DNA from: an uncultured Ignavibacteria bacterium
Lineage (GTDB): Bacteria > Zixibacteria > MSB-5A5 > SM1-73
Assembly: GCA_964348415.1 (NCBI GenBank)
Contig: CAYGCR010000002.1
Coordinates: 25,069-89,068 of the forward strand
DNA: 64,000 bases
Reading direction: 5' to 3'
Part shown: piece by piece, positions 28,565-49,783 of the stretch
How the letters are laid out: the number at the start of each line of letters is the position of its first letter
How positions within the stretch are numbered: the first letter of the stretch is position 1
Position numbers and translations under genes: made by a program
Notes under the pieces: generated by a model
Databases searched by the model: none
The model's input: the letters and a program-made list of their open reading frames with translations, nothing else
What the model was told of the DNA's origin: nothing

Positions 28565-30013
28565 ATGTTGAAAATTAGCAAGTTAGGTGTGGTCTTGTTA
28601 GTGGCCGGTCTCAGTGTTACGACGGCCTTGTTCTGGGGACAGTCAAGCTTTGCCAGTGTGGGCGAAGGCATGGTCCGCGATTATGATGATTCCTATGGAG
28701 TAAGCCACCGTGTGATGTCCCGTCCGTACCTGGACATTGAAGTGTGGGTGGACAAAGGTGATGGAGCTACCTACTACCCCGGCGATGATATTAAGGTGTA
28801 CTTCCGGGCATCGCGGGACTGCTACGTGGTGGTTTACGATATCGACACCAGGGGATACGTCCACCTTCTCTACCCAGTTGATCGACGAGATGACCCTTAC
28901 GTAGAGGGTGGGAGAGTTTATAGAATACCGGACAGGTTCGATGACTACGAACTGACCGTCAACGGCCCGGATGGAGTGGAATACATCCAGGCGGTGGCAA
29001 GTTTCGAACCCTTAGATCTTCCGAACTTCCCCGGTGAATATTCATATGAGGGTGAGATATATGCATACCAGCTGGAAGGAGAAGACCCTTTTGAATTCAT
29101 GGCGGAAGTCAACGCCGAGATCGCCCCGTACGATTATGCATCGGATGTCTGCATTTTCAGCGTGGAGTATGCGCACCCCAGGTGGTATTACTGGCCGCGG
29201 GTAGTCTACGTGGATCGTCCGGTGGACCTACTCTGGGGAGGCGTCTACTTTGATTATCCCTGGGGCGTGGAAGTATGGATTGATGGAGTATTCTACGGTA
29301 TCACGCCCATCACCATTCCGGCGCTGGTTGTGGGAAGACATTACGTGAGCTTCTGGTATCACGGATGCTGGATATGGAGAGATTGGTTCCACGTAAGAAG
29401 CCACTACGTCGTAACCATTTGGCCTGACTGCCACGACCGCTACCGGTACGTGCATGAAAGATATGTGGAGAAAAGCTATCGGGCAGAAAAAGCCAAAAGA
29501 AGAAGAGGAGTTGGGAAAACCGGTGGGTTGGTAAAACCTGTGAGAATGGTGGAGAAGGGCGGACTGGCTAAAGCCGAGGTCGACCGCATCAAGAACGACA
29601 GGGAAATCAGAAGGGAAGGAGCGGCAAAGAGAAGTAGACTGAAAGATCGCCTCACTCCCTCGCGCATTTCCGAGAAGCAACAACCAAGGAAAATAGAAAA
29701 GGTAGTCAGGAGTCAAAGTCGAAGGTCGTCGCCTTCGGAAAGGCCCGCGACTTTTGACAAAGGAAAAGCTAAGGCAAGGAAGATCACGTCCAAGGGCCGG
29801 AGTCCCGAAAGGATAAGATCCGATCGCAAGCTTACCCGTCCGAAGCAGCCTTCCAAAGTGACGCCCCGGATCCGAGAAGACGACAGGTCAAAAGCGAAGG
29901 CCAGTACGATGAAAATAGGAAAGCCAAGAAGAGCAGTGGCAAAACCATCAGGTGTAAGGACAACCCAGGCGAAGAGACCAACCCACAGCAAACCGGACAA
30001 GAGAAGAAGATAA
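28565..30013 (+). CDS. Secreted DUF4384-like/PEGA-domain protein with a ~170-aa extremely basic (K/R/S/P-rich) C-terminal tail.
   Basis: Signal peptide. The PEGA-like segment is GVEVWIDGVFYGITPITIPALVVGRHYVSF. The tail is a low-complexity RRR/KAK/SPER region resembling histone H1. Confidence 0.65.
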   Translation: MLKISKLGVVLLVAGLSVTTALFWGQSSFASVGEGMVRDYDDSYGVSHRVMSRPYLDIEVWVDKGDGATYYPGDDIKVYFRASRDCYVVVYDIDTRGYVHLLYPVDRRDDPYVEGGRVYRIPDRFDDYELTVNGPDGVEYIQAVASFEPLDLPNFPGEYSYEGEIYAYQLEGEDPFEFMAEVNAEIAPYDYASDVCIFSVEYAHPRWYYWPRVVYVDRPVDLLWGGVYFDYPWGVEVWIDGVFYGITPITIPALVVGRHYVSFWYHGCWIWRDWFHVRSHYVVTIWPDCHDRYRYVHERYVEKSYRAEKAKRRRGVGKTGGLVKPVRMVEKGGLAKAEVDRIKNDREIRREGAAKRSRLKDRLTPSRISEKQQPRKIEKVVRSQSRRSSPSERPATFDKGKAKARKITSKGRSPERIRSDRKLTRPKQPSKVTPRIREDDRSKAKASTMKIGKPRRAVAKPSGVRTTQAKRPTHSKPDKRRR

Positions 30014-31233: not shown

Positions 31234-32442
31234 ATGACCACCAAGTTTCAGGCCAAAGAGGCGGGGCTTACCGGCAATCTGCAGACGGTTCCCGTTTCCG
31301 ATCTGCTGCAGCTGATCAGCGCGGCTGCGAAAACGGGCATGCTTTCCATTTCGCAGGAAAGCAAGAAAAGACAGATATACTTCGTGAAGGGAAATATCAC
31401 CTGTGCCACTGCCTCGGGAACCGAAGATGAGCTTTTGGGGAACCTATTGTTGGCTCAGAAGAGGATTCCGAAAGCCGAGTTAGAACGGGCTCTAAGCCTT
31501 CAGAAGCTCACTCACAAAAGATTGGGCAGCCTGCTCCAAGAGATGGGCTTGATAAACAGAGAAGAATTGACAAAGTTTTTACGCTTCCAAGTGGAGGAGA
31601 TAGTCTACAATCTGTTTGGCTGGAGTTCCGGCGCGTTTACCTTTTACGAAGGTGAGTCGCCGCCTGCAGAACTGGTCACCACCCAGCTCAACACTATGAA
31701 CGTCATCATGGAGGGCACCAGAAGAATCGATGAGTGGATCCAAATCCAGCAGGCTCTTCCCTCGGACGATGTGAAGGTTCAAACCATCAAGAATCCTAAG
31801 ATAAAGTCAAATACCTTGACCATGAGCGTAGCGGAACTGCAGGTGCTGCCCCTGATAGACGGAGAGAAGAACGTTTCCGAGCTTATACAGACCAGCCCTG
31901 TGAGCGAATTCCACACGCGCAAAGCACTGTATAACTTGATCAGTTCAGGGTTGGTTGAGGCCGGCGAGAAAAAGAAGACGACCAAACACAAGATCAGTGA
32001 TGATAAGCTTCTTTTGTACGTGATAATCAAACTATACTCTCAGTCATATCAAACGCTGGAAAGAATGGCCTCCCGAAAATTAGGGCAGGGAGCGAAGAGG
32101 ATTTTAAAGAGATGTTTTGACGCTCAAAAATCCCTGCACCCTTTCCTAACTAAACTGGAAAGCTCTAAAGACTTCTTGGATTTCAGTCACCTGGAAAGCT
32201 CGGCGGGTAAGGTGACACAACCTATCCGATTTCACAAGCTGATGAACGCACTGAACGGTCTGCTTCTGGAATTTCTGAGGGCAGTATCCACAAGTTTGGG
32301 GAGAAACATAAGCAGACAGATCATATCCCAGATCAAGAAGGAAGCGGCCCAGGTCGTGGCCGAGCAAAGAGGAATCTCAAAAGAGTATGAGTTGGAGGAG
32401 GAGATTCTGAAGACTCTGAAAGAGAGTCAGCTGACTGCTTAG
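31234..32442 (+). CDS. PATAN/DUF4388-domain protein. This domain family has been noted in association with MglA-like GTPase loci.
   Basis: The N-terminal ~110 aa match the DUF4388/PATAN pattern: LTGNLQTVPVSDLLQLISAAAKTGMLSISQE...IYFVKGNI...ASGTEDELLGNLL. It is co-directional with and upstream of the mglBA cluster. Confidence 0.6.
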   Translation: MTTKFQAKEAGLTGNLQTVPVSDLLQLISAAAKTGMLSISQESKKRQIYFVKGNITCATASGTEDELLGNLLLAQKRIPKAELERALSLQKLTHKRLGSLLQEMGLINREELTKFLRFQVEEIVYNLFGWSSGAFTFYEGESPPAELVTTQLNTMNVIMEGTRRIDEWIQIQQALPSDDVKVQTIKNPKIKSNTLTMSVAELQVLPLIDGEKNVSELIQTSPVSEFHTRKALYNLISSGLVEAGEKKKTTKHKISDDKLLLYVIIKLYSQSYQTLERMASRKLGQGAKRILKRCFDAQKSLHPFLTKLESSKDFLDFSHLESSAGKVTQPIRFHKLMNALNGLLLEFLRAVSTSLGRNISRQIISQIKKEAAQVVAEQRGISKEYELEEEILKTLKESQLTA

Positions 32443-33111: not shown

Positions 33112-33960
33112 TTGAAGCCGAGAGGAATTATGCAACCCGGTTCGCAAGTGGACGAGAGAATCTCTAAGTGTGAAGAGATTCTGTCTCGTAATCCTAAGTC
33201 TGTGATTTTCGCGGCTCTGTCGGATGCCTACCGCAAGAAGGGAGATTTGGCCAGGGCGTTCCATATTTGCGGCCAAGGATTGAAATCTCATCCCGACTAT
33301 GGCCCGGGGCATCTGGTGATGGCGAAAATCAACATGGAAAGAGGGATGTACTCGGAGGCAGAAAGGGAACTGGCCCTGGCGGTCCGGGCAGATGGGAAGA
33401 CGAGAGCCACGGAGCTTCTTTTAGCTCAGATTTTAACAAAGAGGGGTCAAATAAAAGGGGCCAAGAAGATCTTGGAAAAGCTCAGAACCAGTGATCCAGC
33501 AAATGAGCTGATCGGTGAGCTGCTGGAGAGCATAAGGCAAAAAGAGAAATCAGACAAGCCCAGCCGTGCCATGGCAGCGGTGGATGAACGATGGCATATC
33601 GAGAAGGTCGCGGACCTTGAAGATGGCGTACACTGTTTGAAATCCTTGCCCGGGGTAATAGGAGCTCTGGTGATAGGAGAGGACGGATCAGTAATGGAGA
33701 GCAAGGTCAAACCTGAACTAGATCCAGAGGTGCTGGCCGCAATCGCCAACAGCATCACCGGATGTGTCAAGAACGGGATATCCGACGTGGGGTTTGGGGA
33801 ATATGCCGACATCTTGGTGGAAACTGGAAATCTCCAGCTGTGGATTACAGGTTTGAAGGAGACGTCTCTACTGTTATGTTGTGACCCCGAAACCAATATG
33901 GGGGCCTTGAGAATAAAAGTGACTGAACTTGTGGGACATATCTGGGGAAATGATGCATAA
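33112..33960 (+). CDS. TPR-repeat / Roadblock-LC7 (MglB-like) fusion protein.
   Basis: The N-terminal ~140 aa are TPR-like, with AYRKKGDLARAFHICGQGLKSHPDYGPGHLVMAKINMERGMYSEAERELALA. The C-terminal ~100 aa carry a Roadblock-like pattern: IGALVIGEDGSVMES...AAIANSITG...ADILVETGNLQLWITGL. Confidence 0.65.
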   Translation: MKPRGIMQPGSQVDERISKCEEILSRNPKSVIFAALSDAYRKKGDLARAFHICGQGLKSHPDYGPGHLVMAKINMERGMYSEAERELALAVRADGKTRATELLLAQILTKRGQIKGAKKILEKLRTSDPANELIGELLESIRQKEKSDKPSRAMAAVDERWHIEKVADLEDGVHCLKSLPGVIGALVIGEDGSVMESKVKPELDPEVLAAIANSITGCVKNGISDVGFGEYADILVETGNLQLWITGLKETSLLLCCDPETNMGALRIKVTELVGHIWGNDA

Positions 33961-33974
33961 AAAAGGGGAGTAAA

Positions 33975-34916
33975 GTGGCTAAGGATTACAGTAAGGAGCT
34001 GAGGGGAATCCTTCTGGTCTCACTTTTCATCGTGGTGGTACCGTTGGTATTCTTTCCTAAGGATTTCGGGTTAAAATTAGGATCTTCACTCGTTCTGCCC
34101 TTCGCCCTGGAGCTGGGGTGGTATCTGCTGGTTCTATTCATTATGTTTTCGGAAACAACAGCTGCGAGGGTATTGCTGTTTGCTTTGTTGACACTGGCTT
34201 ACCGTATCGGCCTGGGGATTGGATTTGGCATCCTTCTTCTGGTTATGTTCTCCCTGCCTTTATCCTCCGCCTTAGGCTTAGGTATCTACCGGTATGCGCC
34301 AGCTTTTTTGCTTCAGGCCTTGATGTCGCCATTCGCGCTCAAGTCGCTTTTTCAAGTTCTCACCCAAAGAGTAAAGAGAACACAGGAAATTCAAGTACCG
34401 GAAACGTCGGATGCAAAGTTTGCCCAGAAGACCGCCCGGCCGGCTCTGTCCGATGCTCCGCCTGAATTGGATAAAGAGTCGGATGGGGCGAAAACAGTTT
34501 CTTCCGAAAAGGAGAGCAGGGTGATAGGAGAAAACAAATTGGAACACATCTTACACTATCTAAGAGAATATGCCGGAGTCAAAGCCGCCGTTCTGCTCGA
34601 TCATGAGGGTCTGGTGATAGCTGAGGATTCTCGCGATTTTGATCCGGAAACTGTCGCCTGTTTCGGTCGATGCTTGAAGGAAATGAACGACCAAATGCTT
34701 CACAGGATAGGGCAAAAGACTGCGGAACGGATTGGAATTCATACAACAGATATGTGGATATGCTTAAACCAGGTAGGAAACTTGACGTTGCTGGTACTGT
34801 CGGATCGCCGCACGGACGAACTTCTTTCAGTTCGAATATCGCAGTCCACCGGAATGATAAGAAAACTTCTCAGCGAGAGATACCAGCCAGGAGTGTTAAA
34901 AGCCGTGGAGGTATGA
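33975..34916 (+). CDS. Polytopic membrane-anchored Roadblock/LC7-domain protein.
   Basis: Four predicted TM helices in the N-terminal 125 aa, a linker, then a Roadblock-like segment: VKAAVLLDHEGLVIAEDSRDFDPETVACFGRCLKEMND...NLTLLVLSD. Confidence 0.65.
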   Translation: MAKDYSKELRGILLVSLFIVVVPLVFFPKDFGLKLGSSLVLPFALELGWYLLVLFIMFSETTAARVLLFALLTLAYRIGLGIGFGILLLVMFSLPLSSALGLGIYRYAPAFLLQALMSPFALKSLFQVLTQRVKRTQEIQVPETSDAKFAQKTARPALSDAPPELDKESDGAKTVSSEKESRVIGENKLEHILHYLREYAGVKAAVLLDHEGLVIAEDSRDFDPETVACFGRCLKEMNDQMLHRIGQKTAERIGIHTTDMWICLNQVGNLTLLVLSDRRTDELLSVRISQSTGMIRKLLSERYQPGVLKAVEV

Positions 34917-34917
34917 C

Positions 34918-35268
34918 ATGTACAAGATATTGGAGGAATTGAACAAGACTACCGGGATCAACGGAAGCATGGTAGTGGGTCAGGACGGAATCGTGATTGC
35001 CGCGGATTTGAATTCCCAACTTCAGGACGAGGCGGTTGGTGCCTTGGCCGCTTCCATCGTTGGCACGGTTAAGAAATCAATGGAACGCCTTTCTAATGAA
35101 GACCTGAAGCAGATAACCGTGGAGGCCGATAAGGGTAAGTTTTTCTTTGCTGATGTGGGCATAGGCATCTTGGCGGTCACCACGGATCCCCAGGTGAACG
35201 TAGGATTGGTTCGTCTCGAGATCAAGAACGCGGCAGAAAAGATAAAACAGATACCCAAGTCCGTCTGA
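34918..35268 (+). CDS. mglB: MglB-type Roadblock/LC7 protein, the cognate GAP-family partner of MglA.
   Basis: 116-aa Roadblock-fold pattern: INGSMVVGQDGIVIAADL...ASIVGTVKKS...FADVGIGILAVTTD. Its ATG overlaps the upstream stop, and it lies immediately upstream of mglA as in the myxobacterial mglBA arrangement. Confidence 0.8.
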   Translation: MYKILEELNKTTGINGSMVVGQDGIVIAADLNSQLQDEAVGALAASIVGTVKKSMERLSNEDLKQITVEADKGKFFFADVGIGILAVTTDPQVNVGLVRLEIKNAAEKIKQIPKSV

Positions 35269-35300: not shown

Positions 35301-36275
35301 ATGGCATCCATAAACTATGCGTCCAAGGAGATCTCCTGCAAGATAGTCTTCTACGGTCCCGGCCTCTCCGGAAAGACAACCAATCTCCAATATGTTCACA
35401 AAAAGATTCCGCCTCAGACCAGGGGCGAACTGATCTCTCTGGCCACCGATCAGGATAGGACACTCTATTTTGATTTTCTTCCGGTGGACATCGGGAAGGT
35501 ACACGGGTTTTCCACCAAGTTTCAACTTTACACCGTGCCCGGTCAGGTGTACTACAACGCTACCCGGAAACTGGTGCTAAGGGGAGTGGACGGTCTGGTA
35601 TTTGTGGCGGACTCTCAGAAAAGCAAAATGGATGAGAACATAGAGAGCTTTCAGAACCTGGTGGAGAATCTATCAGAGTACGGATATAAAATAGACAGAA
35701 TTCCTGTAGTATTTCAGTATAACAAAAGGGACCTTCCCAACATCAGTCCTGTGGTGGAATTGGAGAAGACGTTGAACCCCAAAGGCTTGCCCCATTTCGA
35801 AGCCATCGCTACCAGGGGAATAGGCGTGTTCGATAGTCTGAAATGCATTAGTAAATTGGTCCTGGATCAAGCCAAGCGCAAGCAACTTTTCCCTGAAAGG
35901 GAGATGGCTGGGCAAGAAGCCGAAAAAGTGTCGGCCGATGGTGAGCTCTCGCAGACGCCGGAAAAAGAGCCGATTGCAGCAAAGGTGACCTCCACACCTA
36001 CGGCAACTGAAGTTTCAGGCCAACGGCCAGTTGCCACCTTAGCTAAGAAGGAAGTGGAGCCCTCCCCGAAGCAGATAATTCCAGAGCCACTAAAAGCTCA
36101 GCAGGAAAGAGTCCCGGAGGTCGGGCCGGACGCGGGCGAGTTCGCCGAAGAGGACGAGAAGATGGAAAGGACCTTGGCCAAAGACAGCTCCACCATAATA
36201 AGCTGGTCTGCCGGCAAGACGGCCAAGCCGGGAGGATTCTTTTTGTGGCGTTGGTTGAGCAAACTTTTCAAATAG
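35301..36275 (+). CDS. mglA: MglA-family Ras-like small GTPase with a ~130-aa C-terminal low-complexity extension.
   Basis: The N-terminal ~190 aa align closely to Myxococcus MglA: P-loop GPGLSGKT, intrinsic Arg in DRTLYFDF, catalytic Gln in TVPGQ, and NKRD G4. The C-terminal extension, rich in E/P/A/K/T, ends in GGFFLWRWLSKLFK. Confidence 0.85.
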   Translation: MASINYASKEISCKIVFYGPGLSGKTTNLQYVHKKIPPQTRGELISLATDQDRTLYFDFLPVDIGKVHGFSTKFQLYTVPGQVYYNATRKLVLRGVDGLVFVADSQKSKMDENIESFQNLVENLSEYGYKIDRIPVVFQYNKRDLPNISPVVELEKTLNPKGLPHFEAIATRGIGVFDSLKCISKLVLDQAKRKQLFPEREMAGQEAEKVSADGELSQTPEKEPIAAKVTSTPTATEVSGQRPVATLAKKEVEPSPKQIIPEPLKAQQERVPEVGPDAGEFAEEDEKMERTLAKDSSTIISWSAGKTAKPGGFFLWRWLSKLFK

Positions 36276-36288
36276 ACAGAGTGGAGGT

Positions 36289-36825
36289 GTGAAATTGAGA
36301 CAGGAGGACCTTGTAATCTACGAGGAGCAAATCGAGAAGATAGAAAAAGCTCTGATGAAGTTGATCAAGGGCGCACAAGCCAAGTGTGTTCTCCTGGTGG
36401 ATAAAGATGGGCATCTGATCACTCGACACGGTTTCACTCAGTCTTTGGATACCACTGCCTTGGCGGCGCTTCTGGCGGGAAGTTTCGCTTCCACCCGAGA
36501 GATCGCCCGTCTTGTTGGAGAGCCGGAATTTTCAGTTCTTTTCCACCAAGGCAAAAAGGATCATATCCACATAACCCTGGTGGGCGAAAGGACCATTCTG
36601 GCGGTCATCTTTGATGATCGGACAACCATCGGTATGGTTCGGCTGTATGCCAAGGAGGCCTCGGAGAATCTGAAGAGAATCCTGTACCTCACCCAGCATC
36701 AGAAGCCCCGAGGCGAACCGGAAAAAGAAGCAGATGCAGATTCAGAGTTCTCCACCTCTTTGGAAAGCAGGCTGGATGATATCTTCTCCGATAAGCCCGA
36801 GAAAGAGGATATCCCAACGGGATGA
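36289..36825 (+). CDS. Roadblock/LC7-domain protein with an acidic C-terminal tail. It is a second stand-alone MglB/MglC-like paralogue.
   Basis: Roadblock-like segment: AKCVLLVDKDGHLITRHG...AALLAGSFASTREIA...ILAVIFDD. The tail is EPEKEADADSEFSTSLESRLDDIFSDKPEKED. Start is GTG or TTG. Confidence 0.65.
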   Translation: MKLRQEDLVIYEEQIEKIEKALMKLIKGAQAKCVLLVDKDGHLITRHGFTQSLDTTALAALLAGSFASTREIARLVGEPEFSVLFHQGKKDHIHITLVGERTILAVIFDDRTTIGMVRLYAKEASENLKRILYLTQHQKPRGEPEKEADADSEFSTSLESRLDDIFSDKPEKEDIPTG

Positions 36826-36954: not shown

Positions 36955-38646
36955 ATGTCACGTGAACTGGGACAAATGCTAGTTAAGGCGGGCAAGATAT
37001 CCGAGGAACAGCTTGCCCAGGCCTTAGAGTCACAGAAACAGAGCAAAGAGAAATTAGGCGATGCTCTCATAAGAACGGGTGCGCTCTCCGGTGAGGAGGA
37101 GCTCTCAGAGTTTATCGGGAGACAGCTAAATATCGGCGCTTTGAGGCTTTCCGACATTGAGCTCAACCCTGAGGTGGTCAAGATGATTCCCCCGGACATC
37201 GCCCGAAAGTTTAATGTCATCGCCATCAGCAAGCTGGGCAAGACATTGATAGTGGCCATTTCCGACCCCAACAACATCTATGTTCTGGACGCCATAAAGT
37301 TCATCTCCGGGCACTCGGTCCAGCCGGTCATAAGTCCAGAGAAAGCCATTCAGAAGGCCATTGATGCCTACTATCAAGACACCGGAGGATTGGACCAGAT
37401 TCTTAAGGGACTGAAAGAAGAGGATCTGCAGGTCATCGAGGAGAACGAAGACATTCCTACCGAACAGGATCTAAGGTCCCAGGTGCAGGACAAGCCTTTA
37501 GTCAAGTTGGTGGACTCTATCATCGCGGACGCTATTCGAAGAGGATGTTCGGACATCCATATCGAAAGTTATGAGAAGCGAATAAGAGTCAGATACAGAT
37601 TGGATGGTCGTTTGCAGGAAATGTCTCCCTTGCCCTTTAAATATCGTGCGGCCCTGGTTTCCCGGGTAAAGATAATGGCTGACTTAGACATCTCCGAAAG
37701 AAGACTACCCCAGGACGGCAGGATTAAGGTGAAGTTCGGCGAGAGGGCGGTGGATCTAAGGGTATCCGTGTTGCCCACCATATTCGGTGAGAAGGTGGTA
37801 ATGCGCATTCTGGATCCCAGAAGCGTTAACGTGAATCTGACCAGACTGGGATTCTCGGAAAACTCACTCAGGCAGTTCCAAAAAGCCATTCACTTTCCCT
37901 ACGGCATGATACTTGTGACCGGACCCACCGGGAGTGGTAAAACTACCACTCTCTATTCAGCTTTGAAGCAGATTAACCACACGGACATCAATATAACGAC
38001 CGCCGAGGACCCGGTGGAATTCAATTTTGACGGCATAAATCAGGTGGCGGTGAAAAGTGAGATAGGGTTAAGCTTTGCCGCGTCCTTACGATCGTTTTTG
38101 AGACAGGACCCGGACGTGATCATGGTGGGAGAGATCAGAGATGGCGAGACTGCAGAGATCGCGGTGAGAGCCGCACTAACCGGACATCTGGTGTTCTCCA
38201 CGCTGCACACCAACGATGCTCCCAGTACCATCGATCGGCTGATCGATATGGGCATTCCCAATTATCTGGTGGCCTCCTGCGTCAGGTTGGTCATGGCTCA
38301 AAGAATGGTGCGCAAGATCTGTCCCAGCTGCAAGCGCGTGGCTCAAGTTCCCAAAGCCACTTTTGAGATGTTAGGATTCGGCGATGAGCAGATAAAAGAT
38401 CTGAAGGTTTATGAAGGCAAGGGTTGCTCCGAATGCAATGATACCGGCTATTCCGGGAGAACCGGGATTTTTGAGGTGATGCCGATAAGTCCTGAGATCG
38501 AGAAGATGATCGTTTCCAACGCCTCCAGCGCAGAGATAAGAGAACAGGCCATATCCGAGGGCATGCTGACTTTGAGAATTGCCGCACTGGAAAAGCTGAA
38601 GCAGGGCACCACCACTGTGGGAGAGGTCTTAGCGGTGACTTCCTAG
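36955..38646 (+). CDS. pilB: Type IV pilus assembly (extension) ATPase PilB, of the GspE family.
   Basis: N-terminal T2SSE_N domain, Walker A VTGPTGSGKTTTL, the tetracysteine CxxC...CxxC motif (CPSCKR...CSEC), 563 aa. Confidence 0.85.
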   Translation: MSRELGQMLVKAGKISEEQLAQALESQKQSKEKLGDALIRTGALSGEEELSEFIGRQLNIGALRLSDIELNPEVVKMIPPDIARKFNVIAISKLGKTLIVAISDPNNIYVLDAIKFISGHSVQPVISPEKAIQKAIDAYYQDTGGLDQILKGLKEEDLQVIEENEDIPTEQDLRSQVQDKPLVKLVDSIIADAIRRGCSDIHIESYEKRIRVRYRLDGRLQEMSPLPFKYRAALVSRVKIMADLDISERRLPQDGRIKVKFGERAVDLRVSVLPTIFGEKVVMRILDPRSVNVNLTRLGFSENSLRQFQKAIHFPYGMILVTGPTGSGKTTTLYSALKQINHTDINITTAEDPVEFNFDGINQVAVKSEIGLSFAASLRSFLRQDPDVIMVGEIRDGETAEIAVRAALTGHLVFSTLHTNDAPSTIDRLIDMGIPNYLVASCVRLVMAQRMVRKICPSCKRVAQVPKATFEMLGFGDEQIKDLKVYEGKGCSECNDTGYSGRTGIFEVMPISPEIEKMIVSNASSAEIREQAISEGMLTLRIAALEKLKQGTTTVGEVLAVTS

Positions 38647-38773: not shown

Positions 38774-39868
38774 ATGGTTACTTTACGAGAACTTCTGGAA
38801 CTGATGGCAAAAAAGAACGCTTCAGATCTTCATCTTACCGTGGGCTCGCCACCCCAGCTCAGAATAGACGGAAAGCTGGTCAAGACTGATTACGACATCT
38901 TGACGGCAGATGAAACCAAGAAGTTGGCCTACAGCGTGATGACTGAAAAGCAACGGCAGACATTCGAGGAAAAAAGCGAGCTGGATCTTTCCTTCGGAAT
39001 TGAAAACTTGAGCAGATTCAGATGCAACATCTTCATGCAGAGGGGCAATGTGGCGGCAGCTTTAAGACAGATTCCTTTTCGCATTCCGAGTTTTGAGGAG
39101 TTGGGCATACCCAAGGTAGTCTCGGAGTTGGCCGACCTGCCCAGGGGTTTAGTCTTGGTGACCGGGCCGACTGGAAGCGGAAAATCTACCACCTTGGCCG
39201 CCTTGATCAACAAGATAAATCTGGAAAGGTATTGCCACATTCTCACGGTGGAGGATCCCATTGAATACCTTCATCGACACAATTGTTCCCTGATTAACCA
39301 GAGGGAGGTTTATGCCGACACCGCCTCTTTTGGCAAGGCTTTGAAATACGCCTTGAGAGAGGATCCCGACGTGGTGCTGGTGGGAGAGATGAGAGATTTG
39401 GAGACCATGGAGGCGACCCTGAACATCTCCGAAACCGGACATCTGGCATTCGCCACCCTGCACACCAACTCCTGCGCTGAATCGATAAACAGAATCATCG
39501 ACGTTTTTCCCACCAATCAGCAGGAGCAGGTCCGGGTGACCGTCTCTTTTGTTTTGCAGGCGGTGATAAGCCAGCAGCTGATTCCCAGGATAGGAGGAGG
39601 AAGGGTGTTGGCTCTGGAGATTATGATCTGCACACCGGCCATCAGAGCTTTGATCAGGGATGACAAGATTCATCAGATCTACAGTCTTATGCAGGCAGGG
39701 CAGAAGTTTGGCATGAGGACCATGAATCAAGGTTTAGCTGAGCTCTACATCAAGCATAAGATAACCTTGGGGGACGCTCTGGGAAGAAGCTCAAACATCC
39801 AGGAGCTAAATGAGATTTTGGCCAGAAAATCTGATGCCAGCCGGCAGCGGTCGGCCATTGGCGCTTAG
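38774..39868 (+). CDS. pilT: Twitching-motility retraction ATPase PilT.
   Basis: Walker A VTGPTGSGKSTTLAAL, the His box ATLHTNS and the PilT-type N-terminus ELLELMAKKNASDLHLTVGSPP. Confidence 0.85.
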   Translation: MVTLRELLELMAKKNASDLHLTVGSPPQLRIDGKLVKTDYDILTADETKKLAYSVMTEKQRQTFEEKSELDLSFGIENLSRFRCNIFMQRGNVAAALRQIPFRIPSFEELGIPKVVSELADLPRGLVLVTGPTGSGKSTTLAALINKINLERYCHILTVEDPIEYLHRHNCSLINQREVYADTASFGKALKYALREDPDVVLVGEMRDLETMEATLNISETGHLAFATLHTNSCAESINRIIDVFPTNQQEQVRVTVSFVLQAVISQQLIPRIGGGRVLALEIMICTPAIRALIRDDKIHQIYSLMQAGQKFGMRTMNQGLAELYIKHKITLGDALGRSSNIQELNEILARKSDASRQRSAIGA

Positions 39869-40019: not shown

Positions 40020-41219
40020 TTGCCAGTTTTCACCTATAAGGGAAGGACGTCGGCGGGAACTCAGGTTCAGGGTGAGCTGAGGGCAAAAAACCGAGCTGAA
40101 TTGGAGAGGGTCTTGAGGAACAGGAAAATCCTGGTTTCTCACATCTCCACCAAGCCTTCCCAGGTAAGCATAAGAATTGGGTCCGGAATAAAGAAGGTGC
40201 ACATCTCCAGGTTCACCCGGCAATTCGCCACCATGATCGGGGCCGGACTCCCCATGGTGCAGTGTCTGGAGATATTATCCCAGCAAATGGAATCAGCACA
40301 ACTGAGGAAGATCATCAGCGATGTAAAGGAGAGCGTGCAGTCCGGAACCACTCTGGCCGAAGCTTTGTCCCGGCATAAGAAAGTCTTCGATGATCTTTAT
40401 GTCAACATGGTGGACGCAGGTGAGATCGGAGGCGCTCTGGACGTCATTCTGGTACGCCTGGCCACATATCGGGAAAAGGCCGATGCCCTGGCCCGCAAGG
40501 TTAAAGGGGCGCTAATCTATCCGGCGGTGGTGATGACTGTGGCCATAGCGGTGACCTTTATCATGCTGACTTACATAGTTCCCATCTTCGCCAAAATGTT
40601 TCATGGTCTGGGTGCGGAGCTACCCGGTCCTACCAGATTCGTCCTCTCTTTGAGCGGCTTTCTCAGAGGTAACATACTGACCGGGTTGGTGTTGCTAATC
40701 CTGGTGATAGTCGGATACAGATTCTATTCCAAGACTGATCGGGGCAAATACAATATTGACGCCCTGAAGCTGAAAATCCCGCTTATCGGAGACCTGATCA
40801 GGAAAAGCTCCATCTCAAGGTTTTCGCGGACCCTGGGAACCCTGATCTCATCCGGTGTTCCCATCCTGGATGCTCTGGAGATAACCGCTCGCGCTTCTGG
40901 CAACCGGGTGATACATGATGCCATAAAGAGGTCGGTTCTGTCCATCGCAGAAGGAGAGACAATAACGCAACCTCTGAGACAGTGCGGGGTCTTCCCTCCC
41001 ATGGTTACTCAGATGATTTCCGTCGGAGAAAAGACCGGCGGCCTGGATGACATGCTTTCCAAGATCGCTGACTTTTATGACGAAGAGGTGGATGCTGCGG
41101 TGGCGGCGTTAACCTCCATCATCGAGCCGGTGATAATTGTGTTCATGGGAATTGTGGTCGGAGGAATCCTGATAGCCATGTATCTCCCAATGTTCGAGAT
41201 CATTGGCAAGATCCAGTAA
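40020..41219 (+). CDS. pilC: Type IV pilus inner-membrane platform protein PilC, of the GspF family.
   Basis: Duplicated GspF domains with 3 TM helices, about 400 aa. It lies immediately downstream of pilB and pilT. Confidence 0.85.
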   Translation: MPVFTYKGRTSAGTQVQGELRAKNRAELERVLRNRKILVSHISTKPSQVSIRIGSGIKKVHISRFTRQFATMIGAGLPMVQCLEILSQQMESAQLRKIISDVKESVQSGTTLAEALSRHKKVFDDLYVNMVDAGEIGGALDVILVRLATYREKADALARKVKGALIYPAVVMTVAIAVTFIMLTYIVPIFAKMFHGLGAELPGPTRFVLSLSGFLRGNILTGLVLLILVIVGYRFYSKTDRGKYNIDALKLKIPLIGDLIRKSSISRFSRTLGTLISSGVPILDALEITARASGNRVIHDAIKRSVLSIAEGETITQPLRQCGVFPPMVTQMISVGEKTGGLDDMLSKIADFYDEEVDAAVAALTSIIEPVIIVFMGIVVGGILIAMYLPMFEIIGKIQ

Positions 41220-41365
41220 ATACAACCTGACTGCGCTGAGCAAGTCAAAAATACATCTAACCTAACCTTGCACCACTGCGGCTCTTAGCGGTGGTGTAAG
41301 TTTTTAAGCATTTTTAGGTTTCAAATCCTGAACAGTTTCTTATTACGTCCGGAAAGCGAATCCGA

Positions 41366-43225
41366 ATGAACAGAAGAACGTGGTTTCATTTTTTGAGAAA
41401 GCTCAACGCCGGACTTGAGCAGACATTTTTCGGAAGGGACCGAAACGGCAAGCAAATACAGAGGTATGCGAGCAAGTCAGAGGTCTCCCTCTCCAGAATC
41501 CCCTGGTTTCTGATATCCCGCCTTTCCATATTTGTCCTCTTACTGATAATTGTGGTTCTGTTTTTCCAGATGCCGGATTCTCTGGTCCTTGCCTTCACCA
41601 CCTACTCCTTCATAACCCTGGCTCTTCTTCTGCTCATTGCGTTTGATCTGAAGCAAACTTATCATCTGCTGTTCAGTGCCGTAGTTGTTTTGCAGCTGAT
41701 TCTGGAGATCATAGTCGAAACCGGGTTGGTACATCACACCGGAGGCATGGGCAGTCCCTTTGCCGTCCTTTTTGTTTTGACTATACTATCCGCAAGTCTG
41801 GCTTACGGCTTAGTCGGAAGCGTGTGTATGGCCGGCTTGTCCAGCCTGGCATACGCCTCTGTCCTGTGGGTTGAGGAAGGTTTGGAACTATCTTTTAAAG
41901 GCCTCCTTTACGCTAGTGATGCTTCATTCTATGAAGCATTTCTCTACATCTGCACCTTCTTTTTGGTGGCTTTCATAAGTGGCTATCTGACGCAAAGATT
42001 GAAAGCAAAGGGCCAGGAGCTGTGGACTGCTTCCCTGGAATTGGACAAAATAAAGGCGGATACAGACGAGATACTAAGACACCTGAAAAGCGGCCTCATT
42101 ACGATCGACGCCTGGGGCAGGATTGTTTATTTCAACCGGGCAGCAGAGGAGATATTGGGATATTCCGAAAGCGAGGTAAAAGGGAGAGACTGCCGGGAGG
42201 TATTCCGGCAAAGGATGCCTCAGCTGGCAGAAAAAATAATTCAGGTGATAAAGCTCAACGAGGAACATGCCAGGGGTCTGCTTTATATCGAGGACAAAAA
42301 CGGGCGAAAGATTCCCATAGGCATAAGCACTTCCATTCTGGGGGACACGGAAACGGGCGTGAGAGGTGTGATCGCCATATTCCAGGATATAAGCGAGGCC
42401 ATGAAGCTGGAGGAGAGAATCCGGGTGGCCGACAAGCTGGCTGCAGTTGGCGAACTCTCTGCCGGAATCGCCCACGAGATACGAAATCCTTTGGCCTCTA
42501 TCTCAGGATCGGTGGAAGTTTTGAAGGAGGAGCTTGCCCTGTCCCGGGAGAATCGAAATCTTCTGGACCTGGTAATCAAAGAGACAGACAGGCTGAATCG
42601 GATTGTGACTGATTTTCTGACTTATGCCCGCATCGGCCCCTCGTTGTTAGGCAAAGTGGAGTTGCTGCATCTCCTGGATGACGTCATAGAGATTGCGAGG
42701 AAGCATCCTTGCTATAAGGAAAGTGTCTCCTTTCACAAGATCTTCTCAACGCAGGTGCGATACGTGGTGGGCGAAGAAAATCAGATAAAACAGATATTCT
42801 TGAACCTGCTGGTGAATGCGCTGGAGGCCATGGAGGGCAGGTGGGGTAAGATAGTGATAAGTGATAGAAGCTTGAGTCAACTGGATAAATTCTATTTTCG
42901 GGACGAGGAGCCGGAGGAATCCGAGTGGGTGCCCATTGCGATTGTAGATGAAGGAAAAGGAATGACAGAAGAGCAAAAACAGAAGATTTTCTCCCCGTTT
43001 TATTCTGGCAAAAAAAATGGCACCGGCCTGGGGCTGGCCATAGTACAGAGGCTGGTGAACAACTTAGGCGGAAAGATAGAATTCCGCAGCCAGGAGGGTA
43101 AAGGCTCGGCTTTTGTGGTATATCTGCAGAAGTACACGAAACAGAAGGTTAAGCTCTTTCAGACAGCACCCACCGGGAATCTGGCAAACCTCGACGTTTC
43201 CACTTCGGAATTTCACCTAACCTAA
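41366..43225 (+). CDS. pilS: PilS-like membrane sensor histidine kinase: multi-TM N-terminus, PAS, HisKA, HATPase_c.
   Basis: Six TM helices in the N-terminal ~200 aa, a PAS-like region, H-box AHEIRNPL, and G1/G2 boxes (DEGKGM, GTGLGLAIV). No response-regulator gene follows. Confidence 0.75.
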   Translation: MNRRTWFHFLRKLNAGLEQTFFGRDRNGKQIQRYASKSEVSLSRIPWFLISRLSIFVLLLIIVVLFFQMPDSLVLAFTTYSFITLALLLLIAFDLKQTYHLLFSAVVVLQLILEIIVETGLVHHTGGMGSPFAVLFVLTILSASLAYGLVGSVCMAGLSSLAYASVLWVEEGLELSFKGLLYASDASFYEAFLYICTFFLVAFISGYLTQRLKAKGQELWTASLELDKIKADTDEILRHLKSGLITIDAWGRIVYFNRAAEEILGYSESEVKGRDCREVFRQRMPQLAEKIIQVIKLNEEHARGLLYIEDKNGRKIPIGISTSILGDTETGVRGVIAIFQDISEAMKLEERIRVADKLAAVGELSAGIAHEIRNPLASISGSVEVLKEELALSRENRNLLDLVIKETDRLNRIVTDFLTYARIGPSLLGKVELLHLLDDVIEIARKHPCYKESVSFHKIFSTQVRYVVGEENQIKQIFLNLLVNALEAMEGRWGKIVISDRSLSQLDKFYFRDEEPEESEWVPIAIVDEGKGMTEEQKQKIFSPFYSGKKNGTGLGLAIVQRLVNNLGGKIEFRSQEGKGSAFVVYLQKYTKQKVKLFQTAPTGNLANLDVSTSEFHLT

Positions 43226-45794: not shown

Positions 45795-47231
<1,437 letters not shown>

Positions 47232-47274
47232 CTAAGTAACTCGTAAGATTCCTCTCTATCTGCCGTGCAGTCTT

Positions 47275-48138
47275 CTATCCCTTCAAGGCCTCTGCTCCGG
47301 TGGTGATCTCCAGCATTTCCTTGGTTATGGTTGCCTGTCTCAACTTGTTCATAACCAGAGTGAGATGGTCGATCATTTCTTCCGCATTCTTGGTTGCGGC
47401 TCCCATGGCAATCATTCGCGAACCGTGTTCCGAGGCGAAAGACTCCGCCAGAGCCATCTGAACCCTGGTTATGCAGTAGTTGGGGAGGAGGCTGGCAAAA
47501 ATCTTCTGGGGATTGGGTTCGAAAATATAGTCCACCAGAGCGTCCCTGTCTTCTGTCTCCACCTGGCTTTCTATGTTAAGAAACTTCTCCGAAGTGACCC
47601 TGTAACTGACAGGGGAGAGGAACTTAGTATATGTAAAGTGTATCTCGTCCACCTCTCGCGAAAGGAAGAGGTTGACTAGATCATTGGTGATGTTTTTAAC
47701 CTGCGCCAACTTTAGCTCTGCTCCCAGACCCACATATTTCGATCTTATCTCGCACGCCCTTCTTGCATAGTATGTATTACCCTTCGTTCCAACCAATATG
47801 AGAACCACCTGGTCTGTTTTGTAACGCCCTATGAATTTGTCCGCTTCGTGAATGACATTGTGGTTATATGACCCACATAACCCGCGATCCGAGGTGATCA
47901 CCACCAGCCCTACCTTTTTCATCTCCCTTTTCTCGAAGAGTGGATGGACAACGGAGGCCCCTGCCTTGGTGAGATTACCCAACATAGCCTGCATCTTGGA
48001 AGCATAGGGACGGGATGATTCCACCTTGGCTTGCGCCCTTCCCAACCTTGCGGCTGCCACCATCTCCATAGCCCTGGTGATCTGCTGGGTTCCCTGCACG
48101 GTTTTTATTCTTCTTCTTAGATCGCGTAAGGTCGCCAT
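47275..48138 (-). CDS. atpG: F1Fo ATP synthase gamma subunit.
   Basis: 287 aa, lying between atpA and atpD, with conserved N- and C-terminal coiled-coil helices. Confidence 0.85.
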   Translation of the reverse strand: MATLRDLRRRIKTVQGTQQITRAMEMVAAARLGRAQAKVESSRPYASKMQAMLGNLTKAGASVVHPLFEKREMKKVGLVVITSDRGLCGSYNHNVIHEADKFIGRYKTDQVVLILVGTKGNTYYARRACEIRSKYVGLGAELKLAQVKNITNDLVNLFLSREVDEIHFTYTKFLSPVSYRVTSEKFLNIESQVETEDRDALVDYIFEPNPQKIFASLLPNYCITRVQMALAESFASEHGSRMIAMGAATKNAEEMIDHLTLVMNKLRQATITKEMLEITTGAEALKG

Positions 48139-48214
48139 ATTTAGTTGCTAGGTCTTGAAAAAGTAAATTGTTCTCTCCCGTTGAATCGATGGTAAAAACA
48201 GTAAGCAGTTCAGC

Positions 48215-49783
48215 TCACTGGGACGTGGAAGTGCCTGGCAGCGGGCATACAGGGTCTTCTTCCTTCTGACGCAGTCTTTCTTTGAGTTGCTCTTTGAACC
48301 TGGTTATGGCTTCGTTGAGTTTTCTTTCCGTGCTTTCGTCCAAATCCTTGCTTGTGGCGATGCGGTGCCCTACGTCCGGATATTCTTTTTCCATGAATGG
48401 ATAGAATTCCGCTTCGAATTTCTCAACTGCTTCAACAGCCAGGCTGTCCAGATATCCGTGCGTGGCCGTGTAGATTATCATTACCTGTCTCTCCACCGGC
48501 ATGGGGACATATTGAGCTTGCTTCAAGACCTCGACGGTCCTCTCGCCTCGGGTGAGATACGCTTTGGTGGCTTCATCCAGCTCCGTACCGAATTGAGTGA
48601 ATGCAGCCAGCTCGCGATACTGTGCCAGATCCAACCTCAGTCTTCCTGCCACCTTTCTCATCGCTTGGACCTGGGCTTTTCCTCCCACCCGGGAAACGGA
48701 AATGCCGACGTTGATGGCAGGCCTCACTCCGGCGTAAAACAGGTCTGTCTCCAGGTAAATTTGCCCGTCAGTGATGGAGATGACATTTGTCGGTATATAG
48801 GCGGTCACGTCTCCGGCTTGGATTTCTACTACGGGTATGGCGGTAAGTGACCCACCTCCCAACTCATCATTTAGTTTTGCCGCCCTCTCAAGAAGACGAG
48901 AATGCAGATAGAAGATATCTCCTGGAAAGGCTTCTCTTCCAGGGGGACGCCGCAATAGTAAGGACATTTGCCTGTAGGCTTGAGCATGTTTGGTCAAGTC
49001 GTCGTAAAACACCACCACGTGTTTTCCGTTGTAGAGAAATTCCTCTCCCATGGCGCAGCCCGAATAGGGAGCGATATATTGAAGGGGGGCAGGCTCAGTT
49101 GCGGTGGCTACCACCACGGTGGTGTACTCCATGGCCTGATGATCCTCGAGCGTCTTAATCAGTTGAGCCACGGTGGAGGCTTTTTGCCCTACGGCCACAT
49201 ATATGCAGAACAGGTCGGTGTCTTTCTGGTTGAGTATGGTATCCACTATCAAGGCGGTTTTTCCGGTCTGTCGATCGCCAATGATAAGCTCTCTTTGCCC
49301 CCGGCCTATGGGGATCATGGAATCGATGGCCTTAAGACCGGTCTGCACCGGCTGGCTCACCTGTCTTCGCTGAACCACGTTCGGTGCTCTGCCCTCAATG
49401 GGTCGGTAGTTTTTGGCGACGATGGGGCCCTTTCCGTCAAGAGGCTGACCCAGAGCGTTCACTACCCTGCCCACCATGGCATCCCCTACCGGCACCGAGG
49501 CAATTCTTTCAGTCCGGGTGACTCGGTCACCCTCCTTGATCTCATCATAAGGACCCAGGATGGCGGCGCCCACGTTGTCTTCCTCAAGATTGAGTATCAT
49601 CCCGATCACGTCATTTGGGAATTTGATGAGCTCGCTCATCATGGCGTCCTCCAGACCCCAGATGCGGGCGATACCGTCGCCCACCTGCAGCACGGTCCCC
49701 ACGCTTTCCATTTTAAGTTTGGTCTCGTATTTTTCTATCTCTTTCTGGATGATTGAGCTTACTTCTTCTGGATTCAAGGGCAT
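48215..49783 (-). CDS. atpA: F1Fo ATP synthase alpha subunit.
   Basis: Walker [10 protein letters not shown], 522 aa. Confidence 0.92.

Follow-up and report, generated by a model that had tools for sequence, protein, structure and literature searches.

What is the role of an MglA GTPase whose reading frame continues for more than a hundred residues beyond its G domain? MglA is the paradigm of small-GTPase-driven polarity in bacteria and, to our knowledge, all that is known of it has been learned from soluble proteins of ~195 amino acids (aa) that are placed in the cell by partners, namely RomR/RomX, MglB/MglC/RomY and effectors. The question arises from a 64,000-nucleotide stretch of DNA (hereafter the window) of an uncultured Ignavibacteria bacterium, placed in Zixibacteria in the GTDB lineage, which encodes a single MglA, a long form of 324 aa (35301..36275, forward strand). 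A preliminary description had suggested that this protein may bind the membrane directly via a tethered C-terminal amphipathic helix. The hydrophobic moment of the terminus, the predicted structure and the tails of homologues support that suggestion, and we consider it likely that the gene encodes a membrane-tethered MglA consisting of a G domain, a disordered linker and a C-terminal amphipathic anchor. Three features go beyond the preliminary description, namely another conserved motif (PTIISWSAG) upstream of the helix, the membership of the protein in a large clade, and the position of its gene in a conserved Roadblock/type IV pilus cluster.

The MglA G domain and its extension

The long mglA gene, as delimited from the list of open reading frames (ORFs) and the sequence itself, starts with an ATG codon that is preceded at ~8 nt by a Shine-Dalgarno-like GGGAG site and ends with a TAG stop at 36273-36275. 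Its first 193 codons (35301..35879, forward strand) encode the G domain. The Myxococcus xanthus MglA structures (6h17/6hjh/5ymx) match residues 1-193 from end to end without a gap (E 1.8e-78), as does the Thermus MglA structure (3t12, E 1.2e-72), and the identity to a myxobacterial MglA is 59%. The P-loop GPGLSGKT, which is of the GxxxxGK[ST] type, occupies residues 19-26, the arginine finger R53 lies in DRTLYFDF, and T78 and the catalytic Q82 lie in YTVPGQ; the P-loop and these three residues are invariant in two family alignments (A1 and A2). In MglA, Thr78 is described as replacing the Asp of Ras (TxxGQ) (PMC3000849). When the AlphaFold2 (AF2) model described below was used in a Foldseek search, the best 14 PDB matches were all MglA with target-normalised TM-scores (TMt) of 0.74-0.80. 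These matches bear out the preliminary assignment of residues 1-190 to canonical MglA with its P-loop, Arg and Gln, and they identify residues 1-193 as a bona fide MglA G domain. By all sequence criteria the long protein classifies as MglA, except for the size window of 150-240 aa applied in a 2014 census, which assigned 488 proteins to the MglA subclade, 449 of them small, and excluded sequences longer than 240 aa (PMC4316618). That limit is a census cut-off and not a biological definition; because of the exclusion, long forms were seen in the census yet not analysed.

The extension comprises residues 194-324, that is, 131 aa beyond the G domain, and ends in ...STIISWSAGKTAKPGGFFLWRWLSKLFK. 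It had been described as ~130 aa of low-complexity sequence rich in E, P, A, K and T with this terminus, in agreement with our reading of the ORF and with its composition. One explanation of such a tail is an artefact, in which a frameshift, a missed stop codon or an assembly chimera has lengthened a true 195-aa MglA. The unusual length alone speaks for it, together with a few database representatives that carry frameshift-like junk tails (P0246, P0253 and P0272). Against it, a protein in NCBI from a metagenome-assembled genome (MAG) of candidate division Zixibacteria (P0001) is 100% identical to the query, and more than 115 further clusters at 90% identity, drawn from NCBI, JGI, ENA and Logan assemblies, span ~100% of the query at 53-97% identity, and independent assemblies agree in frame, length class and terminal motif. 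A frameshift or a missed stop could not yield such recurrence, which leads us to reject this explanation as extremely improbable. The pattern of conservation points the same way. The extension is covered by 117 clade members. In a 118-sequence alignment and in a position profile that was anchored and drawn from 116 sequences, conservation per column is 20-40% in the linker and peaks at the very C-terminus, with 75-99% in the last ~28 aa. Moreover, mglB, with a ribosome-binding site of its own, begins 13 nt past the stop. The extension is thus best regarded as real and under selection, not as a chance read-through, and the concern about a frameshift or assembly error raised in the preliminary description can be set aside.

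Four segments can be distinguished in the extension. The first is a linker rich in E, A, P and K (residues 194-296, 35880..36188, forward strand), which is predicted to be disordered on the basis of low conservation, composition, its position on the disordered side of the Uversky charge-hydropathy boundary, and low scores in the predicted local distance difference test (pLDDT) with no secondary structure at all in two AF2 runs. Its composition is 17% E, 12% A, 11% P, 10% K and 7% each of T, Q and V, hydrophobic residues make up 18% compared with 38% in the G domain, and its length varies from ~100 to 190 aa within the query's clade. The linker is followed by a conserved motif, S-T-I-I-S-W-S-A-G (residues 297-305, 36189..36215, forward strand), which was recognised in the family alignment as (P/S)TIISWSAG with 75-90% conservation across the clade members. 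Next comes a basic spacer, K-T-A-K-P-G (residues 306-311, 36216..36233, forward strand), which corresponds to a K/R-rich stretch in the family; in the position profile, K and R predominate at positions -10, -8 to -6, -4 and -2 relative to the helix, and the last 24 aa carry a family median net charge of +7. The protein ends with the amphipathic helix G-FFLWRWLSKLFK (residues 312-324, 36234..36272, forward strand), a putative membrane-targeting sequence delineated by hydrophobic moment, AF2 and the profile. No model in Pfam or NCBIfam matches the linker, the motif or the tail, and a protein-database search with the 44-aa tail alone returned no candidate with enough words in common. Cys is absent from residues 194-324, and hence the query has no C-terminal CaaX or CC prenylation motif.

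The terminal helix and its counterparts in relatives

The helix is conserved in the family as a pattern, FFLW-R-[FW][LF]-[KN]K-L[FL]-[NK]R, in which positions 0-3, 5, 6, 9 and 10 are always hydrophobic and positions 4, 7, 8, 11 and 12 are always K, R, N, S or G. It is this amphipathic pattern and not the exact sequence that is kept, both in the 116-sequence profile and in the similar tails of 57 other representatives. On the Fauchere-Pliska scale, the last 11 aa of the query have a hydrophobic moment (μH) of 0.73, a mean hydrophobicity of 0.92 and a charge of +3. Only 3% of the sequences obtained by shuffling these residues reach this μH, as do 0.2% of 1,322 background C-termini, which were taken from ORFs of at least 200 aa in related loci; none of these 1,322 termini combines a μH of 0.73 with a hydrophobicity of at least 0.9 and a charge of at least +3. 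For the clade as a whole, the median μH of the best 11-mer within the 18 C-terminal residues is 0.81 versus 0.36 in the background (Mann-Whitney p = 3e-69). The values of the query tail equal or exceed those of the targeting helices of MinD, FtsA and MreB; among the sequences used for these hydrophobic moments (FtsA, MreB, SepF, Bacillus subtilis MinD and Escherichia coli MinD), only that of E. coli MinD was verified (PMC5471200). With the MinD motif K-G-F-L-K-R-L-F-G the query shares only the skeleton G-F-[FL]...[KR]...L-F. A transmembrane segment in the query tail was ruled out, the maximal Kyte-Doolittle score of any 19-mer in the last 40 aa being 0.35.

Structure prediction gave a consistent picture. 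An AF2 run with a family-only alignment modelled the N-terminal half of the G domain poorly (mean pLDDT 48.6), and a second run with a mixed alignment of Zixibacteria and Planctomycetota gave a Ras-like fold (mean pLDDT 66.8). The second model consists of the G domain, an unstructured region from 197 to 312 and a predicted terminal helix from 313 to 323 at pLDDT 72-78, which is the arrangement of folded domain, disordered linker and terminal helix that had been expected beforehand. The conserved clade-specific motifs beside the anchor are predicted to be without structure.

Is the tail peculiar to this protein or a trait of its relatives? In a species-level survey with one genome per species, we read 80 MglA loci (L001-L080), each to its stop codon. 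Canonical proteins of 191-205 aa were found in 47 of them, and long proteins fell into those with a polybasic run and a MinD-like helix (17 loci), those with a hydrophobic transmembrane (TM) helix (4 loci) and those with another tail (7 loci); the remaining 5 were cut by the contig end. The 17 loci with MinD-like tails come from Zixibacteria, Ignavibacteria, Fibrobacterota/Chitinivibrionia, one MAG labelled Terriglobales and one unclassified MAG, and examples of their tails are KKKRGFFKRLFGIK, KRFFLFRWFSR, KFSLFGWLKRLGRK and KGFIKKLFNK. In the sister clades of Zixibacteria, Ignavibacteria and Fibrobacterota the tails are of the type KKKxGFFKRLFGxK. The terminus of one such protein (L002, ...KPGFLKRLFGNK) includes GFLKRLFG, an 8-mer identical to part of the E. 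coli MinD membrane-targeting sequence KGFLKRLFGG (PMC5471200).

All four loci of the TM type (L039, L057, L059 and L077) belong to Planctomycetota. A database search with one of them yielded a set of planctomycete proteins (P0121-P0240, 294-427 aa), of which 114 of the 115 full-length homologues end, after basic residues, in a 19-mer with a Kyte-Doolittle score of 2.06-3.2. This marks the planctomycete termini as predicted tail anchors that would leave the G domain on the cytoplasmic side. On a larger scale, a HMMER search of 1.84 billion representatives returned 2,431 proteins at E <= 1e-30. Among the 150 closest representatives (50% identity), all except one are longer than 215 aa (229-764 aa), although the shortest of these 149 (P0305, 229 aa) is an N-terminally truncated fragment; ~60 of the 150 are of the amphipathic-helix type, with linkers of ~130 to 500 aa, and ~17 of the TM type. 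The extension is therefore a family trait, a survey of homologues having been among the checks proposed beforehand, and the position at its end is filled by a basic-hydrophobic helix, by a MinD-like sequence or by a TM helix, whose common denominator is membrane attachment. The MinD-like and TM termini of the relatives provide strong orthogonal evidence that membrane attachment is the function of the terminus.

Each anchored clade also has a conserved motif of its own 8-20 residues upstream of the anchor: PTIISWSAG in the query's clade, P.MA(P/E)S in a second clade of Zixibacteria and Ignavibacteria, M(Y/F)FTSV(N/D)T...KP(V/I)NPK in Fibrobacterota, and GKV(K/Q)IKER or KVQIxExK in Planctomycetota. 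Among long MglAs with other termini (P0283-P0385), motifs such as LRLVLEIxVE, IELRPYVPK, SPF(I/L)DLQPF(R/T)GV and YLRIRGRLxYLxTPEG recur without a Pfam model and may represent further effector or targeting modules. Rarely, the G domain is fused to a Roadblock domain (Rag-like), to a FliN C-terminal domain or to TPR repeats (P0195, P0269 and P0276); each of these fusions was seen in one cluster and may come from assembly or a frameshift.

A conserved peptide at the end of a disordered linker could also dock on a protein. On this explanation the terminal helix, with or without PTIISWSAG, would act in the manner of the FtsZ C-terminal peptide, with a partner such as the membrane-integral Roadblock protein, PilB/PilT/PilC or the PATAN protein encoded nearby. 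The explanation draws on the architecture of FtsZ, which is well established as a GTPase with a variable disordered linker and a conserved terminal peptide, on the second conserved motif upstream of the helix, which membrane binding leaves unexplained, on a membrane-integral Roadblock protein whose gene, two positions upstream, is conserved together with the long MglA, and on the non-anchor C-terminal modules of many long MglAs. We nevertheless regard it as unlikely. The helix keeps a pattern of a hydrophobic face plus K, R or N and not a precise sequence, and in other clades a MinD targeting sequence or a TM helix stands in its place, which a specific epitope would not allow. As is typical of sequences that bind anionic lipids, a polybasic run lies upstream (+7 in the last 24 aa), and Fibrobacterota loci have amphipathic-helix tails without a gene for the TM-Roadblock protein.

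Still less probable, to the point of being very doubtful, is a fold-back of the helix in cis on the G domain, where it would be autoinhibitory or regulatory, for example in the pocket for the MglB helix, and be freed in one nucleotide state. There are precedents for such an arrangement: a pocket of M. xanthus MglA opposite the nucleotide site takes the amphipathic C-terminal helix of MglB (PMC11135422, PMC6785124), and atlastin and other GTPases are reported to be autoinhibited by C-terminal amphipathic helices (PMC8624677). However, the cognate MglB retains its own C-terminal region (aligned up to residue 167 of 178), and this region (LESRLDDIF) is acidic, in contrast to the basic helix of MglA. 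The AF2 model places the helix after an unstructured linker at a pLDDT of only 72-78, the linker ranges in length from ~100 to more than 500 aa, and the planctomycete equivalents are TM helices, which would be unable to dock on a soluble domain.

Proposed membrane tethering and known systems

Membrane tethering of the long MglA can be put together into the following mechanism. The anchor would be formed by a K/R-rich stretch and a 12-residue, strongly hydrophobic and also basic amphipathic helix (FFLWRWLSKLFK), which would insert, as in MinD and FtsA, in the inner membrane's cytoplasmic leaflet, with its basic residues touching anionic lipids. The disordered linker of ~100 residues would let the G domain sweep a shell adjacent to the membrane, where GTP-bound MglA could meet membrane-associated effectors, most plausibly the motor and platform proteins of the type IV pilus and the PATAN protein. 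[quoted passage not shown] Because ~115 disordered residues lie between the helix and the G domain, a direct coupling of anchoring to the nucleotide state is improbable, and anchoring would probably follow a logic like that of Ras and Rab and not that of Arf.

Several points weigh against this interpretation. Membrane binding is inferred from sequence. In the query, an ideal helical wheel puts the first two Phe of the helix on its polar side, and μH calculated with both of them is 0.51-0.55, which is unexceptional compared with shuffles; the cleanly amphipathic portion is LWRWLSKLFK. Other C-terminal modules, unlike anchors, are carried by ~70 of the 150 closest representatives; it is the linker and not the anchor that is universal in the long clade. 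The long forms all group together, apart from the short ones, in a neighbour-joining (NJ) tree of the G domains, and gene order fits this grouping, being mglB-mglA at short and mglA-mglB at long MglA loci; the tree itself, however, is a quick distance tree, midpoint-rooted and without support values. The linkage to type IV pilus genes is found only in Zixibacteria and Ignavibacteria loci and not in those of Fibrobacterota or Planctomycetota. We know of no dimerisation of MglA. One copy of the E. coli MinD targeting sequence binds too weakly to keep a monomer at the membrane, and the longer one of B. subtilis MinD suffices for a monomer (PMC8155659). By this measure, the longer, Trp/Phe-rich helix of the query with its basic run is more likely to work in a single copy, and the weaker MinD-like tails of the sister clades may need avidity or partners.

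The characterised proteins of M. xanthus and Thermus thermophilus are the closest term of comparison. The query shares with them the G domain (59% identical in the myxobacterial case), the same P-loop, arginine finger, T78 and Q82, the adjacent mglB, and a linkage to type IV pilus genes that is consistent with the sorting or stimulation of PilB/PilT by MglA/SofG (PMC4316618, PMC7519303). It differs from them in length (324 aa with linker and anchor compared with 195-197 aa), in gene order (mglA-mglB instead of mglB-mglA) and in a cluster that adds three Roadblock proteins and one PATAN protein. Characterised MglA is described as reaching the pole via RomR/RomX, MglC and effectors and not by lipid binding (PMC9481161, PMC13408092).

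The anchor itself resembles the targeting sequences of MinD and FtsA, each of which forms a short amphipathic helix at the very C-terminus, with Phe and Leu on one face and Lys and Arg on the other, after Gly and basic residues; the tails of the sister-clade MglAs are nearly identical to KGFLKRLFGG. In the query, however, the helix is longer and more hydrophobic than that of MinD (two Trp, three Phe and three Leu; mean hydrophobicity 0.92 versus 0.40), and in the long MglAs the anchor is attached to a Ras-like GTPase via a disordered linker of 100-500 aa, whereas that of MinD is attached directly to a dimerising ParA-type ATPase. The membrane binding of MinD is switched by ATP-dependent dimerisation (PMC8155659), and an equivalent switch is not evident in the long MglA.

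In its layout, the long MglA resembles the Ras, Rho and Rab GTPases such as K-Ras4B, in which a G domain is followed by a variable disordered region, a polybasic stretch and a hydrophobic anchor at the extreme C-terminus, and in which anchoring is not directly coupled to the switch regions. The predicted anchor of the long MglA is a peptide helix, or a TM helix in Planctomycetota, instead of a lipid, Cys and a CaaX box are absent, and the linker is 5-25 times longer. Ras, Rho and Rab also differ in that we know of no extractor of the long MglA like a guanine nucleotide dissociation inhibitor (GDI). Arf and Sar1, including Asgard Arf, are likewise small GTPases that bind the membrane through an amphipathic helix of their own (PMC11914678). 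The Arf helix is N-terminal, packed on the G domain and freed by a GTP-driven interswitch toggle, whereas that of the query is C-terminal and ~115 disordered residues away; with this position and spacing, a nucleotide-coupled exposure is unlikely. An Arf-like switch helix was rejected, since it would require the other terminus and the linker of ~115 aa has no predicted structure.

The combination of a globular GTPase, a disordered linker of variable length and a short conserved terminal element for membrane attachment is also found in FtsZ, and a Mycoplasma FtsZ has a membrane-binding amphipathic helix (10.1101/2023.08.29.555414). FtsZ differs in having an unrelated, tubulin-like polymerising fold, and its canonical peptide binds FtsA or ZipA and not lipid. 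Within the MglA family, terminal extensions are known from SofG, an M. xanthus paralogue of MglA, in which they mediate association with bactofilins. SofG resembles the long MglA in being an MglA-family GTPase with such extensions, and it acts on the positioning of PilB/PilT (PMC4316618); it differs in its length of 239 aa.

Gene neighbourhood and the long MglA clade

The long mglA lies in a row of genes on the forward strand that encode further Roadblock proteins and components of the type IV pilus. Upstream are genes for a PATAN (DUF4388) protein (31234..32442; Pfam DUF4388 4.8e-34), a TPR plus Roadblock protein (33112..33960; TPR_19 5e-12, Robl_LC7 1.6e-7), a membrane-integral Roadblock protein of 313 aa (33975..34916; Robl_LC7 4.6e-5) and, adjoining mglA, a small Roadblock/LC7 protein of 116 aa (34918..35268; Robl_LC7 4e-14). 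The membrane-integral protein combines an N-terminal multi-TM region of ~100 aa, with hydrophobic segments in residues 6-105, and a C-terminal Roadblock/LC7 domain, and is reminiscent of Ragulator, the membrane-anchored Roadblock platform of the Rag GTPases. Further upstream is the gene for a protein of 482 aa that contains DUF4384 and matches the PEGA domain weakly (28565-30013, forward strand).

Downstream, 13 nt from mglA, follows mglB (36289..36825, forward strand), which encodes the cognate GAP with a Roadblock fold and a C-terminal helix region. Residues 7-167 of its 178 match M. xanthus MglB (6izw_B, E 2.4e-35), and the NCBIfam model for MglB (NF052242) is matched at E 6e-26 with 91 bits, which is below its curated cut-off of 200. 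It is followed on the same strand by the motor and platform genes of the type IV pilus, pilB (36955-38646), pilT (38774-39868) and pilC (40020-41219), among which the Pfam matches are T2SSE (1.3e-140 and 4.7e-44), MshEN and T2SSF (4.4e-69). From the TPR-Roadblock gene through pilC, the intergenic gaps are 14, 1, 32, 13, 129, 127 and 151 nt. A scan for promoters and terminators remained at background level except for one strong terminator-like hairpin directly after pilC, a 13-bp stem followed by a T run (41267-41300, forward strand), which is probably the 3' end of a Roadblock-mglA-mglB-pilBTC transcription unit. Beyond the hairpin is the gene for a PilS-like histidine kinase with six TM segments and a PAS domain (41366-43225), and farther on, on the reverse strand, genes for the alpha, gamma and beta subunits of F1 ATP synthase (45795-49783) form an ordinary housekeeping context. 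A role in defence was rejected, since none of the cluster's genes matched a defence-system model in PADLOC.

Much of this gene set travels with the long MglA. Upstream of mglA, long loci usually have a PATAN gene and between one and three additional Roadblock genes, and mglB is downstream of every long locus for which downstream sequence is present. In Zixibacteria and Ignavibacteria, the full order PATAN/TPR-Roadblock/TM-Roadblock/Roadblock/MglA/MglB/PilB/PilT/PilC recurs as far as the sequence extends, and the membrane-integral Roadblock gene stands two genes 5' of mglA in all 12 loci of this type that have enough upstream sequence. Planctomycetota loci consist of genes for a large PATAN-like protein, TPR-Roadblock, Roadblock, the TM-type MglA and MglB, without pil genes, and Fibrobacterota loci keep PATAN, MglA and MglB. 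Thus the PATAN homologue is found upstream in all three groups, the TPR-Roadblock gene in Zixibacteria/Ignavibacteria and, more weakly, in Planctomycetota, and the small Roadblock gene in Zixibacteria/Ignavibacteria, Planctomycetota and one Fibrobacterota locus. Links of PATAN to MglA/B and to the type IV pilus through PilB have already been noted (PMC4316618; 10.1101/2021.06.11.447907). On the basis of this neighbourhood, the best reading of the long MglA is that of a regulator of type IV pili, the link to the pilus being inferred.

A wider proposal can be made for the clade, which we put forward tentatively and with clearly less confidence than the tether of the query protein itself. Long MglAs would form a large clade attached to the cytoplasmic membrane by a hypervariable disordered linker and either a polybasic amphipathic helix (Zixibacteria, Ignavibacteria and Fibrobacterota) or a tail-anchor TM helix (Planctomycetota), as a lipid-free prokaryotic counterpart of the Ras/Rho/Rab anchor. 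Together with a Roadblock set that includes a Ragulator-like platform, they would control type IV pili or other envelope machines, and the motif beside the anchor would be a handle for a regulator.

In open-access papers and preprints we found no description of an MglA that is anchored, tail-anchored or equipped with a membrane-targeting sequence. What appears new is the combination: both the GTPase and the type of anchor are known, and their undescribed pairing would define a large clade. The length cut-offs of earlier censuses removed this clade, and its members now make up a testable class with cultivable representatives in Ignavibacteria, Fibrobacterota and Planctomycetota. If the anchor acts as proposed, the long MglA would search for its effectors in two dimensions, would be unable to relocate by mere cytosolic diffusion, and may be positioned by lipids, by curvature or by a membrane Roadblock platform. 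Bacteria would then have reached the layout of Ras, Rho and Rab without lipidation, which would bear on how small GTPases became switches of membrane identity.

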